IMG/VR virus record: IMGVR_UViG_3300012936_000014
Span: 1-59,089 of that record
Direction: 5' to 3' (one strand)
DNA length: 59,089 nt
DNA from: a virus
Lineage: Duplodnaviria > Caudoviricetes
The position numbers were made by a program, and so were the translations under genes. Positions within the stretch are counted from its first letter, which is position 1, and each line of letters opens with the position of its first letter. Of this stretch, positions 5,125 through 46,532 are shown piece after piece. The notes under the pieces are model-generated. The model had not been told where the DNA came from. It did not search any database and worked only from the letters and a program-made list of their open reading frames with translations.

Positions 5125-5929
5125 CTTTAATACCTTTTATTTTAATTAGTTGAGCTTCTGTAAGTTCCGGCATCATTGTGTCAAGTTTTACATACACGTT
5201 ACCCTGCCGTCCTGTATTTACATCAGGCACTCCGTGTCCTGATATACTAAAAGTAGTTCCAGGTTTTGTGCCTTGCGGAATATGCAAACTAAATTTTCTT
5301 TCTGCTGGTGTTATAATTTCTAAATTTGTTCCTAGCATTAAATCAAAAATGTTAATCACTTTATTTGTGTATATATTGTTACCGTCTCTACGCCAGTTAC
5401 GATCTGGACGTACTTTTATTTTTACTATCAAATTACCTTTAGGCAATTGACTAATAGAGTCATCTCCTAATCCTGCATATCTAACATTTGCGCCATGATC
5501 GACACCTGGAGGAATATGTGCATCTAAAAATTCTTTTCGTCCGCTTGGAAGATTATACTGTATGCTTATAGGCGCACCAGTAAATACTTGTTTGAAATCT
5601 ATAGTATACACTACAGTCACGTCTTGATTTTTAGGTTGTCTACGGCCCTGTCCTCCGAATCCAAATTGTGCAAATATATCTTCAAAATTTGCGCCCATCC
5701 CTCCTTGGAATGGATTACCAGTGTTGAATTGGAATTGTGGTTGCGGATTATCGTATTGTTGTTTTTTGTTAGGATCTTTTAATGTATCGTATGCCTCATT
5801 TATACCTGCAAAAGTTGCATGATCACCGCCACGGTCAGGATGATGCTTTAATGCAAGTTTTTTATATGCTTTTTTAATTTCATCAGGAGAGGCATTCCGA
5901 GGCACGCCTAGACGTTCATAGTAATCCAT
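5111..5929 (-). CDS. dnaJ: DnaJ/CbpA-type co-chaperone (J domain plus C-terminal domain, no zinc finger)
   Basis: DYYERLGV...HHPDRGG J domain, G/F-rich linker, DnaJ_C-like GNLIVKI/GNVYV. Confidence 0.9.
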   Translation of the reverse strand: MDYYERLGVPRNASPDEIKKAYKKLALKHHPDRGGDHATFAGINEAYDTLKDPNKKQQYDNPQPQFQFNTGNPFQGGMGANFEDIFAQFGFGGQGRRQPKNQDVTVVYTIDFKQVFTGAPISIQYNLPSGRKEFLDAHIPPGVDHGANVRYAGLGDDSISQLPKGNLIVKIKVRPDRNWRRDGNNIYTNKVINIFDLMLGTNLEIITPAERKFSLHIPQGTKPGTTFSISGHGVPDVNTGRQGNVYVKLDTMMPELTEAQLIKIKGIKDGTY

Positions 5930-40553: not shown

Positions 40554-41876
40554 TTAAATTTTTTCTCCTGCTTCAAATCCTCGGAAGGTTTTGAATCTTG
40601 GGAACCTGAGACTATACGTTTCAGAATCTTGAGACTTCGTTCTAGCATCTGCTCTTATCTCAACTAGCTGACCAACGAGACTATCACGTTCAGTCCAGTA
40701 CTCATCACGTTGAGCATCAGTGAAGCCGCTCCCACAGTTAAGGCGATAATTGTATCCATCGTCTTCTCCTTCTACAATAATGGCACCTAATCTTCCTTCA
40801 TTACGGCCTGTGCCTTCTTCAACCGCAACAACACTTAATGTAATCTCAATAAACGGTTTTGCCTTTAACCAACTATGCGTTCTTTTGCACTCATAAGGTG
40901 CATCTACATCTTTGATCATTACACCTTCGTAACCACCGTCTACAGCCGCTTTATTAAGCTCTATAAAGCGTTCTTGACCTTCAGCAGTACTTAGATCTAC
41001 ATCTTCCCATTCAAGTGCTTGTACGTGCTGTAAAACGCTTTCATTCTGTTCTACCCAAGCCTTAACTGCCTGACTTCTAAATGACTGTGGTTTGTCCCAA
41101 ATACCTTTTTGGAAGTCTGCTAGTGGACACATATCAAACAAGTGTAAGACTGCGTCATCTGACTGCTTGCCATCCTTACGATGCACCTGCTTCATAAGGT
41201 CTTGGAAGTTAGCACTCATTACTTCGCCATCTAATACAAGATCATATGGCGCAGGCTTTTGTGCAATCACTTCTTCAATCTCTGCAATAATGTGGCCAAA
41301 GTTATGAAACTGCTTACCGTTACGTGAAAACATTTCTACTTTGTCGCCACGGATGATTGTAATAACACGAACACCATCAAGTTTAATTTCAATCTGTTTC
41401 TTACCTACCATTTTCTTTTCATGGTTAGCACTATCATGTGCAAGTGGACAAGTAAACACAGGAATAGCATATTGCGGAAACTTTTTAGCAATCTTATTCA
41501 CTGTCTTTTCTGATACACCACAACGTAGATCTTTAATTAAAATACGTCTGTAAAACATATTCCATTGTTCTGTAGTTGCCACACTCATTGCAAGTTCAAT
41601 TGCATCACGTGCCGCATGTCCTGTAAGCTCTCTATTTATAAGCTGATTTGCTAGTGTTTTAAAATTATCCCAGGATAGTCCTTGTCCTGTCAGTACATCT
41701 GTACGTTCTGGTACTTGCTTTACACCAAATGTTACAAGCGGATCCAGTGCCATCTTGACACCTTCAAAAAATTCATCTAAGCCCTCAGTCATAGCTTCTT
41801 CTATCACTGCTTCTTTTGCAAGTCTAGAATTATCTGCCTCTAGTTTTTCAATTATTGTTTGTGGTTGTGTTCTCAT
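40554..41876 (-). CDS. ATP-dependent DNA ligase
   Basis: KLDGVR (motif I), LDGEV, FD, EGVMIK, WLKAK, CGSGFT, LRFPRF. Confidence 0.95.
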   Translation of the reverse strand: MRTQPQTIIEKLEADNSRLAKEAVIEEAMTEGLDEFFEGVKMALDPLVTFGVKQVPERTDVLTGQGLSWDNFKTLANQLINRELTGHAARDAIELAMSVATTEQWNMFYRRILIKDLRCGVSEKTVNKIAKKFPQYAIPVFTCPLAHDSANHEKKMVGKKQIEIKLDGVRVITIIRGDKVEMFSRNGKQFHNFGHIIAEIEEVIAQKPAPYDLVLDGEVMSANFQDLMKQVHRKDGKQSDDAVLHLFDMCPLADFQKGIWDKPQSFRSQAVKAWVEQNESVLQHVQALEWEDVDLSTAEGQERFIELNKAAVDGGYEGVMIKDVDAPYECKRTHSWLKAKPFIEITLSVVAVEEGTGRNEGRLGAIIVEGEDDGYNYRLNCGSGFTDAQRDEYWTERDSLVGQLVEIRADARTKSQDSETYSLRFPRFKTFRGFEAGEKI

Positions 41877-42287: not shown

Positions 42288-42388
42288 TGGCTCTGGGGGA
42301 AGGACTCGAACCTCCACGCTAAATATATTGCAGTACATTTGGCACACGAGAAACAATCGTGCGTGTCTACCATTTCCACCACCCCAGA
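42288..42388 (-). tRNA. Atypical 101-nt tRNA: GUU (Asn) anticodon on a Leu-like class II body with a long variable arm
   Basis: TCTGGGG/CCCCAGA acceptor, G73, CCA; D arm GTGGAAATGGTAGACAC; CACGA-TTGTTTC-TCGTG; 29-nt variable region; GGAGG-TTCGAGT-CCTTC. Confidence 0.85.
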
Positions 42389-42392
42389 TCGG

Positions 42393-43238
42393 TTATGCCG
42401 CTATCTTTTTACTTTGTTCTAAAAGATCTAAAGCGGCAATCATTCTTGTCATTCCTATTCCGCCGCCAACTCTTTCAAAGAAGTCGAACTCTAAAAACTT
42501 TTCAAGTTCTGCTTCAACTCTATCTTTGCCAAATAGTTCGTATAATAGATTACTGTAAGCACCATTAGTAATAGTATGAAATGTGTTTCTCATTTGATCT
42601 ACATCAGTTGAACGCTCTGCAGATCCTATTGTTTCCATTCCACCTAGTATCACATCTATTTTCTTACTGCTATCGCCATCGTCATTTCTGCTCATATTCC
42701 AAAAAGGTGATGTCATTTCAGGAAAGTCTGTGATCATTGCAGTATCAAATTGTTCATACATTTTAGTTTCATGCTCTGCTTCTAGTTCGTCACTTGCACT
42801 CAATTCAAAATGTGTTTGCCATTGTCTGTAAGTTTTTTCTGTAGGTTTTGTAAAACCTAGGTATTCAACTAATTCATACTCCATCTTTTTAAGATCGTTT
42901 ATGTCACCTGGCATTTCAAATTCAAACATTGGAAATATTATATCGTGTCTGCCTGGTATAGCATTAGGCTCTTGTCTGTAAGATGTGCTGACACAAAAAA
43001 AGCCCTTTGCATCGGGCTGTGAAAGTAATTCATGTTCTAACCACATTTGGCCTGTTTGCGGCAACGGCCACACTTGGCCTGCGTAATTGTATGTTGCTAC
43101 ATTGAATGGGTCTTCACATGCGGCAAGTATACTTAATCTATTTTGTGTATGTACTTCTTGGAAACCTTTGTCCAAAAAAAATGACCTTAAAAGGCCAACT
43201 GTTTTAGTAAATTTACTTGGGTTTATGAGTTGTGTCAT
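42393..43238 (-). CDS. Class IIb (Asn/Asp) aminoacyl-tRNA synthetase catalytic-core paralog lacking the anticodon-binding domain (AsnRS-like/asparagine synthetase-like)
   Basis: Motif 1 FFLDKGFQEVHT near the N-terminus; motif 2 YRQE...GRH...FPMFEFE; ETIGSAER; motif 3 GGGIGMTR; 281 aa. Confidence 0.85.
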   Translation of the reverse strand: MTQLINPSKFTKTVGLLRSFFLDKGFQEVHTQNRLSILAACEDPFNVATYNYAGQVWPLPQTGQMWLEHELLSQPDAKGFFCVSTSYRQEPNAIPGRHDIIFPMFEFEMPGDINDLKKMEYELVEYLGFTKPTEKTYRQWQTHFELSASDELEAEHETKMYEQFDTAMITDFPEMTSPFWNMSRNDDGDSSKKIDVILGGMETIGSAERSTDVDQMRNTFHTITNGAYSNLLYELFGKDRVEAELEKFLEFDFFERVGGGIGMTRMIAALDLLEQSKKIAA

Positions 43239-44336: not shown

Positions 44337-44365
44337 ACTATAACACCTTTTTATTATTGTGTCAA
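44337..44365 (-). promoter_or_regulatory. Sigma70-type promoter
   Basis: TTGACA-N17-TATAGT. Confidence 0.7.
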
Positions 44366-44875
44366 GTATTTTTTTTTGGTCATCCTATATGTCATAAAAG
44401 TTCTTTCTTTTCCATGTTCATGTAATTTAAGTGTTTCATCATACACATGGGTGAATCCAAGTTTTTCAGTTGCACGTTGATTACGTTTGTTATCATGCGT
44501 CATATGAATATGCACGTTGTCATAATATTTAAATGCATGGTCTATTAATAAAAAACGGAAACTGTGATTGTATGTTCCTCCCCAATATTGTCTACCTAAA
44601 AAAGTACTGCCCATATAAAGTCTATCCTGCACAGTATAATATCTTGTTGTGCCTATCTGCGTGTTATTATTATTTTCAAGTATACAAAAACTTTTTCCTG
44701 TACTAAGTAAATGATTAAAAAATCTAGTAAACGGTTTTAATTCATACCTGTTTTTGGCAGGCATGCCTTCCCATATAAGCGGGTCTTTGGCTACAGCATA
44801 GAGAGGCCAATAATCGTCTTGCACCAATGGCCTTACTGTTACTAAATCATTTTTAAGTGTTGGTTGAAAATTCAT
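44354..44875 (-). CDS. GNAT (RimJ/RimL-type) acetyltransferase-like protein
   Basis: IGTTRYY, GSTFLGRQYWGGTYN, NKRNQRATEKLG. Confidence 0.8.
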   Translation of the reverse strand: MNFQPTLKNDLVTVRPLVQDDYWPLYAVAKDPLIWEGMPAKNRYELKPFTRFFNHLLSTGKSFCILENNNNTQIGTTRYYTVQDRLYMGSTFLGRQYWGGTYNHSFRFLLIDHAFKYYDNVHIHMTHDNKRNQRATEKLGFTHVYDETLKLHEHGKERTFMTYRMTKKKYLTQ

Positions 44876-46532
44876 TTATTGCCCATTCACGTTCTTCGCA
44901 CCACCAACATTTACCACATGCGGGGTCACTTACTTCGCAACTAAAACTAACATCTAAGAGTTCTTCTATACACATACTGTGATACAATGCTATAACAACA
45001 CTTTTATCTATGTTGTAAAATGGTCTTAGGGTTTTTTTATCTCCCCCTTTAGTTAAATCTTTATCACGTCTAGTATCACGTTCATTGTCACTGTCAAACT
45101 TTACTGGAGGATTTGAAGTCATACCATTTAACCATGTGTCTATATCATGTTTTCTTTCTATTTCTTTTTTAATCTGTCTGCGTTCTGCTTCTATATTATC
45201 TTCACTAACAGTTCTAATATAATGAGTGTTAATTTGATCAGGATAGTATTGTTGTATCCAATCTACTACTGCTTTAGCATAAGGTAATTGATGCCTTCTG
45301 CTAGTCCTATCTATTGTTAAAAGAACACACTCGTGCCCTGCCTGACACAGCATGTATAGTAATAACGCACTATCGGCACCTCCACTTATTGACACACCTA
45401 CCTTTTTAGGCACCTGTAACAGTATTTTCTGTATGTAATCATTTTTCCATAATCTATCTCTACTGTTTTCGCTTGCTACTTCCTTTAACACTTCAGAGGC
45501 AGATATACCATTGTATTGTTGTAAACAATGATCACCTCCATAACAAATAGTATCACCAGGTATACTGCTAATAAACTGCTTGGCATTTTTCCAACTAGCA
45601 TTGCTGTCTTTTAGCAAGTTTCCCGGCATACGTTTTAGGGCACCGTTCCACCATATCACTCCATTGCCTGTTGTGTTTTTGAAAATAGGCTTCATATCAT
45701 CTGGATCAGTAATGTTTACTCTATGAAAGTGATGTTGTAGTTTTTGATATGAACGCCAATGATCTAACCATCCATCGCCAAATTCATTTTGAAGTGCGTC
45801 CCACACTATCCTCTTGGTTTTTCCTTTGCTAGAAAATTGACTACGATTAAAAAGACCTATAGTAGGAAATTTTTCATTTACATGATCTATCCAAGCACCT
45901 AATTTTTTACCATCCCAATTTTCAATAGTATATTTTCTAACCTGTAAACTTGGTTTACTAATATCTATGTGATGCACTACAGTATCTTTATGATAACCAT
46001 GATATTGTAGCAAACTGTTAATAAAAAATCCACTACTTACTGTCATTGCCCAGTCAACAGGACCTGTTTTATTGCCATGCACTGGCAACTCATTGTGTAC
46101 TAGATATGACATATTGCTGTCGTCTATCAAATTTTTTACAACAGCAGTGTGACCTGTTAAGAAATTTTGTTCGGTATCGCTTGGGATATAATCAACTGTT
46201 CTATCGAGAGTTAAATTTTGCTCTCCTGTGCCTTTAGGTTGCCATACTCGAACAGTGGGTAGAATATATGTCCATTCATAGTTTTCTAAATTTGGAGCAA
46301 CGTGTCTTTCGTATGTTCCCCATAGAAAAAGTGTACCTGCTTCTATAAGGAGTACACTGCTATAGTGTTCAAAGTGACTTTGTACAAATTTATCAACTAC
46401 ATAGTAGTCCATAGAATCTGAACTATATCTACTAGATACACTGAAATCTATGCTTAGTTGACTGTAATTATTCGCTATCAGGTTATACCATTTATTTCCT
46501 GTACTAATAATAATTACTGCCTTAGAAGCCAT
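44853..46532 (-). CDS. Unknown N-terminal domain fused to a QueC-like PP-loop ATPase
   Basis: C-terminal part: VSISGGADS, RPF..DK, SFSCE...CGKCWWCEER. Confidence 0.65.
   Translation of the reverse strand: MASKAVIIISTGNKWYNLIANNYSQLSIDFSVSSRYSSDSMDYYVVDKFVQSHFEHYSSVLLIEAGTLFLWGTYERHVAPNLENYEWTYILPTVRVWQPKGTGEQNLTLDRTVDYIPSDTEQNFLTGHTAVVKNLIDDSNMSYLVHNELPVHGNKTGPVDWAMTVSSGFFINSLLQYHGYHKDTVVHHIDISKPSLQVRKYTIENWDGKKLGAWIDHVNEKFPTIGLFNRSQFSSKGKTKRIVWDALQNEFGDGWLDHWRSYQKLQHHFHRVNITDPDDMKPIFKNTTGNGVIWWNGALKRMPGNLLKDSNASWKNAKQFISSIPGDTICYGGDHCLQQYNGISASEVLKEVASENSRDRLWKNDYIQKILLQVPKKVGVSISGGADSALLLYMLCQAGHECVLLTIDRTSRRHQLPYAKAVVDWIQQYYPDQINTHYIRTVSEDNIEAERRQIKKEIERKHDIDTWLNGMTSNPPVKFDSDNERDTRRDKDLTKGGDKKTLRPFYNIDKSVVIALYHSMCIEELLDVSFSCEVSDPACGKCWWCEEREWAINEFSTNT

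Follow-up and report, generated by a model that had tools for sequence, protein, structure and literature searches.

This analysis concerns two adjacent genes on the minus strand of IMGVR_UViG_3300012936_000014, a Caudoviricetes record of IMG/VR whose full stretch of 59,089 nucleotides (nt) is called the window below. One gene (42393-43238) encodes a protein of 281 amino acids (aa) that resembles the class IIb catalytic core of asparaginyl-tRNA synthetase (AsnRS) and has no anticodon-binding domain. The other (42288-42388) is a class-II-shaped tRNA with a GUU anticodon, which we call tRNA(GUU). The enzyme gene stops with TAA at 42395-42393 and a spacer of 4 nt (42389-42392) follows. The tRNA then runs from U1 at 42388 to G73 at 42291, its 98 nt being followed by an encoded CCA at 42290-42288. 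Consensus scans revealed no promoter-like or terminator-like site between the open reading frame (ORF) and the tRNA. All genes surrounding the pair lie on the minus strand as well.

The core-only enzyme and its long-arm tRNA

Residues 12-270 of the ORF match profile positions 27-292 of 308 in the Pfam family tRNA-synt_2 (D, K and N synthetases; PF00152; 61.6 bits), so the ORF holds the catalytic core alone. The first match to the core model falls at profile position 27, and the OB-fold of AsnRS is lacking. An AlphaFold2 model built on a 52-sequence alignment (pLDDT 96.4, pTM 0.92) likewise consists of the core only, without an OB-fold. A preliminary description of this DNA, made from the sequence alone, had read the protein as a class II core of the Asn/Asp type without an anticodon domain, and the profile match and the model both bear this out. 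With Foldseek, the top match of the model was the P. horikoshii AsnRS 1x54 (E 1.7e-17, TMq 0.76), and the other best matches were the human, Brugia and Thermus AsnRS and aspartyl-tRNA synthetases (AspRS) of the archaeal/eukaryotic type; these targets are 420-500 aa long, with TMt about 0.5. A profile search of PDB sequences placed AsnRS 2xti (59.4 bits) and the archaeal AspRS 3nel (56.3 bits) on top, with the archaeal asparagine synthetase 3p8t (32.6 bits, E 4.3e-07) and EpmA (25.9 bits) further down. None of three specific NCBIfam models came near its cut-off: the AsnRS model NF003037 gave 35.1 bits (cut-off 414), the model for non-discriminating AspRS (ND-AspRS) gave 32.8 bits (cut-off 353), and NF005055, for the archaeal AsnRS-like asparagine synthetase, gave 22.7 bits (cut-off 389). 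The protein belongs to PHROG 29758, which has no function assigned in PHROGs; NCBI labels its relatives 'amino acid--tRNA ligase-related protein', and its ESM Atlas matches are solely 'tRNA ligase family protein' clusters.

Motifs 1-3 of the class IIb core are all present. The residues of motif 2 (R88, E90, R97 and H98) and of motif 3 (G258 to R265) are invariant in the family alignment, and because of this the enzyme would be expected to use ATP and to form an adenylate. The motif-1 region of the window enzyme reads E-V-H-T-Q, its last residue being Gln. Two places in the pocket could be compared in the printed alignments. At the first, the family has Q-M-x-L-E, where Brugia AsnRS has Q-L-Y-L-E and archaeal AspRS has Q-L-Y-K-Q. 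At the second, past motif 2, the family has F-E-F-E, against V-E-A-E in AsnRS and I-D-S-E in AspRS. In AspRS, the Lys and the Asp at these two places hold the carboxylate of the side chain. Judged against that structural work on AspRS, the pocket looks Asn-type, and the enzyme itself would derive from an AsnRS.

The Rfam tRNA model matches 42291-42388 on the minus strand with 42.8 bits (gathering threshold 29, E 7.6e-07); ARAGORN missed this tRNA. Its anticodon loop (42350-42356) reads UUGUUUC, with G34, U35 and U36 at 42354-42352 and U37 at 42351. The variable region (42316-42344) is 29 nt long and folds into a hairpin of 10 positions, of which one is a C.A mismatch. In both the D arm and the T arm, a stretch of 22 aligned positions agrees at 20 with the tRNA-Leu(UAG) of the same phage (44044-44127, minus strand). 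The cloverleaf 4 nt past the stop, with U1-A72, G73, GUU and U37, and the tRNA-Leu(UAG)-like body had already been pointed out in the preliminary description, and both stand. The 29-nt hairpin stands too for the window, as one of two size classes only. As a whole, the molecule has the long base-paired variable arm and the 3-bp D stem of class II tRNAs, combined with GUU and G73 instead of an anticodon and discriminator for Leu, Ser or Tyr. It has neither the class I body with a short variable loop nor the combination of purine 37 and U33 that mark bacterial tRNA-Asn. Position 37 is a near-universal purine in ordinary tRNAs and a modified A in tRNA-Asn.

We quantified the conservation of this tRNA family with 49 distinct relatives, from which we also built a covariance model, R1. 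Overall, 98% of the cells in the alignment are standard pairs, the four stems of the cloverleaf are 100% paired, and 20 of the 29 pairs show changes on both sides. The observed pairing values were reached by none of 500 shuffles, and no slid register came near them. A decaying pseudo-tRNA, which the preliminary description had named as a way for its proposal to fail, is at odds with this covariation. Against this changing background, U1-A72 and G73 are invariant (49/49), while five of the six other acceptor pairs change on both sides. The anticodon GUU (G34 U35 U36) is invariant in these 49 tRNAs and in all 59 distinct sequences of a second set. The flanking positions are relaxed: at position 37, 36 of the 49 have U, 8 have A and 5 have C, and the second set has U throughout (59/59); position 33 is a C or G instead of U in 3/49 and 8/59, about 10%. 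In an alignment of 84 rows, 80 start with U and finish with A-G; the four departing rows are probably two with non-GUU anticodon loops and two 3'-cut matches (L253 and L032). Going by these alignments, tRNA(GUU) is a selected tRNA, yet unlike a normal decoder. Since the next-best matches of R1 in every genome searched were tRNA-Leu genes, the comparison also supports a probable descent of tRNA(GUU) from tRNA-Leu.

The variable arm behaves differently from the identity positions. Across the phage relatives it spans about 12-37 nt, and the tRNAs fall into a short class of 82-88 nt (arms of 12-17 nt) and a long class of 96-106 nt. In the long class, the base helix of the arm is 98% paired with compensatory changes in 3/3 pairs, the inner helix is 88% paired, and a YGCAA loop and an AUAUUUA 3' strand are conserved. 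The arm differs to this extent among phages whose enzymes are more than 80% identical, and the same phages carry other over-long tRNAs; on both counts, it is improbable that the enzyme recognises the arm by its sequence. This weakens the earlier suggestion that the enzyme recognises the tRNA through the arm.

Several of these over-long tRNAs deserve mention in their own right. Relatives of the window carry a 94-nt tRNA-Ile(UAU) with a long variable region (L008:1319-1412, L014:2864-2957, L024:1407-1500 and L416:1664-1757), which by its sequence is apparently a second tRNA of class II shape whose identity normally belongs to class I. A tRNA-like sequence of 82 nt, again long-armed, lies at L080:155-236. 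Long arms on odd tRNAs may thus be a wider habit of these phages. ARAGORN reads the long-arm forms of tRNA(GUU) (L006-L085, 96-106 nt) as intron-bearing tRNA-Asp(atc), tRNA-Ile(aat) or tRNA-Glu(ctc), or as tRNAs with four-base anticodons, or misses them. Automatic annotation therefore under-reports or mislabels tRNA(GUU).

Pairing of the two genes in cyanophages

The Prochlorococcus phages P-SSM7, P-SSM2 and P-SSM5 encode homologs that are 64.5-67% identical to the window enzyme and are annotated 'tRNA ligase'. All three have, within about 10 nt past the enzyme gene, a long-armed tRNA-Asn(GUU) of 85-88 nt that shares U1-A72, G73 and U37; in the P-SSM2 clade the CCA end is not encoded. P-SSM7 has the pair between gp23 and gp3, whereas in P-SSM2 and P-SSM5 it is flanked by hypothetical genes and a lipase, and its context in the window is different again. 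Because the surrounding genes differ between phages in this way, the two genes travel together: enzyme and tRNA are a mobile two-gene cassette of marine cyanomyoviruses.

At least about 600 IMG/VR contigs carry relatives of the enzyme. We took the 80 loci nearest to the window and the 80 nearest to P-SSM7, and the tRNA was found behind the gene in 153 of the 155 evaluable loci of both sets. In the set nearest to the window, an R1 match lies directly behind the gene in 77 of 80 loci, and a 3'-cut match in L032 brings this to 78. In the set nearest to P-SSM7 there are 75 such matches among 80 loci, and the five misses are contigs ending at most 34 nt past the gene. The real exceptions are L028 and L029, which have a terminator-like hairpin in the tRNA's place; tRNA(GUU) is absent throughout the 187-kb record of this lineage. 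We also searched in reverse, starting from the tRNA pattern. Among the 80 loci listed, the enzyme lies upstream in all 76 that could be evaluated, the other four being too short on that side; its distance from the alignment end is about 1-42 nt at 71 loci and about 70-225 nt at 5. Wherever the tRNA could be evaluated, the enzyme was thus present as well; the reverse does not hold. In a midpoint-rooted FastTree of 69 enzyme sequences, hand-picked from about 260 loci, all enzymes linked to the tRNA group together in a single clade, which has L028 inside it. This topology indicates that the linkage was probably gained once and lost once.

One could argue that the two genes have no functional link at all. 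The tRNA would then be a hot spot of recombination or mobility, a 3' processing or stabilising element, a decoy for nucleases, or a tRNA mischarged by seryl- or leucyl-tRNA synthetase (SerRS, LeuRS). LeuRS needs A73 where tRNA(GUU) has G73, and U1-A72 is not known as a feature of tRNA-Ser. Nothing in the data suggests nucleases or a Ser or Leu identity, so that the decoy and the SerRS mischarging that the preliminary description had offered as its second and third options find no support. A chance association would fit the other oddly long tRNAs of the same phages, such as the 94-nt tRNA-Ile(UAU), and the statement, in the passages found of Sullivan 2010 (PMC3037559), that the tRNA regions of cyanophage genomes are non-syntenic. 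Nevertheless, two enzyme clades with about 65% identity between them have both retained the adjacency, in differing contexts, and the invariance of GUU, G73 and U1-A72 amid compensatory changes speaks for selection on identity elements and not merely on the fold. We regard the absence of any link as very improbable.

Three features argue that enzyme and tRNA work together: the one-sided dependence of the tRNA, an Asn identity set that never varies, and decoding positions that are relaxed. That the core-only AsnRS-like enzyme is functionally tied to the chimeric long-arm tRNA(GUU) in cyanomyoviruses is strongly supported. The dedicated pair put forward in the preliminary description is thus supported in part, through its linkage (153/155 loci with the tRNA, 76/76 tRNAs with the gene), its three proposed functions being conjectural.

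The most direct of these functions is an orthogonal translational pair, in which the minimal AsnRS would charge tRNA(GUU) with Asn through U1-A72 and G73, the tRNA would decode AAY codons, and the long arm would keep the full-length AsnRS or ND-AspRS of the host off it. The AsnRS-like pocket with intact motifs 2 and 3 is in line with this, as are the tRNA's constant company of the enzyme, the invariant U1-A72, G73 and GUU, the intact cloverleaf and the encoded CCA. Moreover, tRNA(GUU) is the sole tRNA-Asn in every phage record examined, and P-SSM2 (252 kb) and a complete IMG/VR phage of 179 kb have no other tRNA of any kind; for the latter reason it does not belong to a tRNA set for adjusting codon usage. 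On the other hand, the enzyme persists without the tRNA in the L028/L029 lineage, the pyrimidine at position 37 in nearly all copies and the non-U33 in about 10% are poor for decoding, and U1-A72 with G73 would by themselves be insufficient to tell tRNA-Asn from tRNA-Gln. We consider an orthogonal pair rather unlikely yet a serious rival, and the cellular relatives described below bear on this further.

As for expression, a search of RNA runs returned small shares throughout (0.05-0.10). Among the contigs of four RNA libraries, three have pieces 85-95% like the gene, one of them also a piece like the tRNA region. These are assembled contigs of relatives for which carry-over of DNA is possible, and no listed record spans the junction of gene and tRNA.

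Some observations concern the records and the surroundings of the cassette. In the P-SSM2 record AY939844.2 (L002, locus 5825-5910), the tRNA-Asn feature PSSM2_199 is annotated about 2 kb off; Rfam places the tRNA at 162083-162168, directly past the ligase, and the misplaced coordinates appear to suit the other P-SSM2 record, GU071092.1. Downstream of the cassette in the window, an ATP-dependent DNA ligase (PF01068 plus an OB domain; 40554-41876, minus strand) lies just past a tRNA-Trp/tRNA-Cys pair. Two genes upstream lies an ORF of 559 aa (44853-46532, minus strand) whose C-terminal part resembles PP-loop/QueC proteins weakly (29.6 bits over residues 380-462), the first 370 residues being unaccounted for, and a GNAT acetyltransferase (44354-44875) comes next.

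The enzyme family in cells and its pyrimidine gene neighbours

The enzyme family is not confined to phages. A scan of 1.84 billion representatives found it in 690 clusters at 50% identity, most of about 270-300 aa. From 418 species-genome loci with relatives we took the best 80, which are 54-85% identical to the window protein. Carriers include Patescibacteria (many of them Saccharibacteria, some with complete chromosomes), Rickettsiales, Dependentiae, Weeksellaceae, Aureispira, Chitinophagales and other Proteobacteria; some loci of this set are mis-binned phage contigs. The close cellular homologs (55-61% identity) have no such tRNA alongside, and tRNA(GUU) occurs in the species-genome set on phage-like contigs only (L101-L105 and L111). 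An R1 search of five carrier genomes found no class II tRNA-Asn: their long-arm tRNAs are for Leu, Ser and Tyr only, and their tRNA-Asn is ordinary. The neighbourhoods of core-only homologs, which the preliminary description had proposed to survey for a similar tRNA, thus yield it in the phage relatives and lack it in these cellular homologs, which counts in part against its proposal. The huge uncultured phages LR756501.1 (L004, 735 kb) and LR756508.1 (L005, 484 kb) encode more distant homologs (44-48% identical) with no tRNA within 3 kb; there too the best R1 matches are tRNA-Leu genes, and one of the two records has an ordinary 74-nt tRNA-Asn. These two records have 66 and 28 tRNA-model matches, respectively, several of them 97-118 nt long and oddly read by ARAGORN.

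Of 10 carrier genomes tested, 6 lack canonical AsnRS and 4 have it. GatB was found in each of the five carriers tested for it (G001-G005), and AsnB in 3 of 10 carriers. In one Patescibacteria class (Saccharimonadia-like), 6 of 121 genomes carry the family and 15 of 121 carry AsnRS-like proteins, with no overlap. We considered whether the enzyme is an essential replacement of AsnRS in these genomes and rejected this idea, the family being too sporadic. For an orthogonal pair, it is a further difficulty that the enzyme is so sporadic in a class mostly without AsnRS and that it occurs in hundreds of cellular genomes with ordinary tRNA-Asn only.

We also weighed the possibility that the enzyme is an asparagine synthetase (aspartate, ammonia and ATP to free Asn) standing beside an independent tRNA-Asn decoder, so that the two genes would share a theme and not interact. 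The core-only architecture is like that of the archaeal enzyme (3p8t, with the E-value given above), and, in keeping with the archaeal pattern, three of the four carriers with canonical AsnRS are without AsnB at the threshold used. But the score against the archaeal model lies far below the cut-off, and the six carriers without canonical AsnRS have no enzyme that could bring free Asn into translation, which makes an asparagine synthetase pointless there. Such an enzyme also leaves the pyrimidine gene clusters described next, the tRNA's constant company of the enzyme, the class II body and U37 unexplained. We think this alternative quite improbable.

The gene neighbourhoods of the cellular members point in another direction. 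In Midichloriaceae, the enzyme is followed by a gene of the orotidine monophosphate (OMP) decarboxylase family, a phosphoribosyltransferase (PRT) of 137 aa and a 246-aa gene product of the dihydroorotate dehydrogenase (DHOdh) family. A metagenome-assembled genome (MAG) of Rhodospirillaceae has all three after the enzyme in the same order and direction, and an Actinobacillus MAG has the PyrF-like gene and the small PRT in that order; its DHOdh-family gene comes directly afterwards but is encoded on the other strand. The gene upstream of the enzyme in Aureispira and Chitinophagales is a genuine PyrD (482.8 bits with NF002702, whose cut-off is 301), which has a PyrE-PyrF fusion next to it. Globally, when the neighbours of the 80 loci were clustered, the DHOdh family was the commonest (14/80 loci, in Bacteroidota, Alpha- and Gammaproteobacteria and two phage-like contigs), and PRT- or OMP-decarboxylase-family neighbours were found at 9/80 loci, so that the pyrD/pyrE/pyrF neighbourhood extends across phyla. 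Cyanophages share in it: the loci L010 and L012 have a DHOdh-like gene upstream of the enzyme, L010, L012 and L052 have a small PRT-like gene directly after the tRNA, and on the phage-like contigs L103 and L111 a DHOdh-like gene is close by. Members with pyr neighbours turn up all over the family tree, also within the tRNA-bearing clade.

The small PRT-like protein (133-137 aa; L010:2420-2818, L012, L052, L158:3916-4329, L150:3969-4373 and L155:4465-4872) is far shorter than PyrE. It recurs by the enzyme in phages and Proteobacteria together with shortened DHOdh-like (226-246 aa) and OMP-decarboxylase-like (212-216 aa) proteins, and the three look like a miniature gene set. At the Patescibacteria loci (L112-L179), the enzyme gene often lies between a DusB-like tRNA-dihydrouridine synthase and dnaX, often with a tRNA-Gln(UUG) 0.1-2 kb downstream. 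There are no pyr genes at these loci, and for this reason the enzyme's role in Patescibacteria may differ from that elsewhere.

We then searched 13 carrier genomes for the pyrimidine pathway itself. PyrB exceeded its cut-off in none of the 13 carriers and in 14 of 14 controls. PyrC of either type likewise exceeded its cut-off in none of the carriers, and CarB was found in 2 of 13. By contrast, 6 of the 13 have PyrD (PF01180) and 7 have PyrF. Five genomes have late enzymes but not one of the three early enzymes; these include the complete chromosome (1.3 Mb) of a Rickettsiales member and MAGs with sizes of 6.7 and 6.9 Mb. In Weeksellaceae, the family occurs in 2 of 81 genomes, and both are among the 20 without PyrB. 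The carriers thus lack the enzymes that the family would replace and keep the later ones, although two of them have neither PyrD nor PyrF. Such pyr clusters in genomes without PyrB and PyrC point to a metabolic role rather than, or besides, the tRNA charging considered in the preliminary description, and the cellular contexts hint at an undescribed metabolic route. They also disfavour a plain AsnRS, and with it an orthogonal pair, neither of which explains the pyrD/E/F neighbourhoods or the missing early steps.

Proposed role and comparison with known systems

From the observed anatomy, conservation, covariation, gene neighbourhoods and patterns of presence and absence, we infer the reaction, its substrate and the direction of any Asn transfer as follows. 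We tentatively favour, with somewhat less than even confidence, a composite metabolic reading: a mobile cassette of an adenylate-forming, AsnRS-derived core that supplies late pyrimidine synthesis, and of a tRNA that depends on this enzyme. The widespread family would work in cells with PyrD, PyrE and PyrF, where it would replace the missing steps of CarAB, PyrB and PyrC; judging from the gene contexts, the most economical reading is that it supplies the substrate of PyrD. The simplest chemistry would be an ATP-dependent closure of L-asparagine with CO2 or bicarbonate to L-dihydroorotate. We propose it because dihydroorotate is formally asparagine plus CO2 minus water, because the pocket looks Asn-type, and because carbamoyl-phosphate synthetase is mostly absent; aspartate plus urea would be an alternative of a like kind. 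The phage would use the enzyme gene as an auxiliary metabolic gene, to supply the host's PyrD, PyrE and PyrF during infection. The tRNA would have arisen once from a phage tRNA-Leu by gaining the Asn identity set (GUU, G73 and U1-A72). The dependence would be one-way, of the tRNA on the enzyme and not of the enzyme on the tRNA, and the tRNA would most likely give Asn to the enzyme or take Asn from it, and would not be an ordinary decoder.

Several points weigh against this composite reading. The reaction is a guess from gene context and formal chemistry, and we know of no precedent for a class II synthetase fold that activates carbamate or closes such a ring. The complete Patescibacteria genomes G001 and G002 carry the enzyme with neither PyrD nor PyrF, which makes the pyrimidine link less than universal; for several carriers that are MAGs the completeness is not stated, and some 'cellular' contigs are possibly phage-derived. 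Among 15 cyanophage records, three have a DHOdh-like gene of their own and none has an OMP decarboxylase. The pyrimidine idea alone also leaves the link to the tRNA unexplained, and an invariant anticodon, intact nucleotides of the tertiary contacts and an encoded CCA would suit a decoding tRNA as well, as would the finding that no phage record examined has a second, canonical tRNA-Asn. The enzyme may charge the tRNA itself, as in an orthogonal pair, or the tRNA may carry Asn made on it by the host's ND-AspRS and GatCAB.

A more specific version, which we consider unlikely, would tie the tRNA directly to the chemistry. The tRNA would be a non-decoding scaffold, loaded with Asn by the host's ND-AspRS (reading GUU and G73) and GatCAB (reading U1-A72), and the enzyme, whose core would still bind the acceptor end, would close this Asn with CO2 to dihydroorotate. 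CarAB, PyrB and PyrC and their regulation would then be bypassed during infection. In cells, the same enzyme would act on ordinary Asn-tRNA or free Asn, and together with the miniature PyrD, PRT and PyrF it would make up a four-gene pathway to uridine monophosphate in symbionts.

If the composite reading is true, with dihydroorotate or another ring precursor made from asparagine, it would add a previously unrecognised entry to pyrimidine nucleotide synthesis. It would explain why large free-living Bacteroidota and several symbionts keep PyrD, PyrE and PyrF without CarAB, PyrB and PyrC, and the auxiliary metabolic genes of marine cyanophages would be joined by a very abundant one (at least 8000 protein clusters, besides the viral contigs counted above). 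Under any reading, nature has here put Asn identity elements on the body of a tRNA-Leu and tied the product to an enzyme without an anticodon domain, which bears on the origin of new tRNA identities and of orthogonal pairs. Both genes have been in GenBank since the deposit of P-SSM2, as 'tRNA ligase' and 'tRNA-Asn'. In the main text of open-access papers we found no publication that deals with this family of enzymes, with a tRNA-Asn that has a long arm, or with a pyrimidine-synthesis role for an AsnRS-like enzyme. In the passages found, Sullivan 2010 (PMC3037559) merely lists the 'tRNA ligase' (T4-GC 194) for two phages, Sullivan 2005 (PMC1079782) does not discuss the tRNA, and Iyer 2021 (PMC7824862) has the term in its reference list only.

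Compared with known systems, the enzyme shares with the catalytic domain of AsnRS (class IIb) the fold, motifs 2 and 3 and the Asn-type residues at two places of the pocket. It differs in having no OB-fold, in its length (281 aa against about 430-450), in the E-V-H-T-Q of the motif-1 region and in its metabolic gene contexts. EpmA (PoxA/GenX) and GluQRS (YadB) are likewise truncated synthetase cores, which have kept the activation of an amino acid and changed its acceptor: EpmA acts on EF-P, and GluQRS on the queuosine in the anticodon loop of tRNA-Asp. However, the match to EpmA is weak, GluQRS is a class I enzyme, and neither is paired with a tRNA gene of its own or with pyr genes.

For the tRNA, the nearest comparison is the route through ND-AspRS and GatCAB, since the phage tRNA retains exactly the elements that this route reads. 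AspRS and AsnRS read G73 and the GUU anticodon. We know of no system with a carrier tRNA supplied by a phage. According to Bailly 2006 (PMC1635274), U1-A72 is an identity element for GatCAB. The natural tRNA-Asn of this route differs in being a class I tRNA with a short variable loop. PylRS with tRNAPyl and the staphylococcal cell-wall tRNA-Gly offer a gene-linked enzyme and a non-standard tRNA with relaxed decoding features, much as in the cassette, but the phage enzyme has no domain to bind the body of a tRNA, and its close relatives function without the tRNA.

On the metabolic side, the canonical pyrimidine pathway runs through CarAB, PyrB, PyrC, PyrD, PyrE and PyrF. The neighbours of the enzyme family are PyrD, PyrE and PyrF or miniatures of them, whereas the three early enzymes are missing from the carriers, apart from the two with CarB; no AsnRS-like enzyme was found in any described pyrimidine route. 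The archaeal AsnRS-like asparagine synthetase (3p8t, 1nnh) and AsnA are core-only paralogs of an Asp or Asn synthetase that turned metabolic, as the enzyme described here would have done. The enzyme is not a member of the archaeal group: it matches that synthetase with 32.6 bits against 59.4 bits for a true AsnRS and falls far below the cut-off of the equivalog model. Unlike the archaeal synthetase, it often occurs in genomes without AsnRS and is linked to pyrD/E/F and, in phages, to a tRNA. By analogy, adenylate chemistry on a substrate like aspartate or asparagine, as in the archaeal synthetase and AsnA, would nevertheless be the best model for what this enzyme does.

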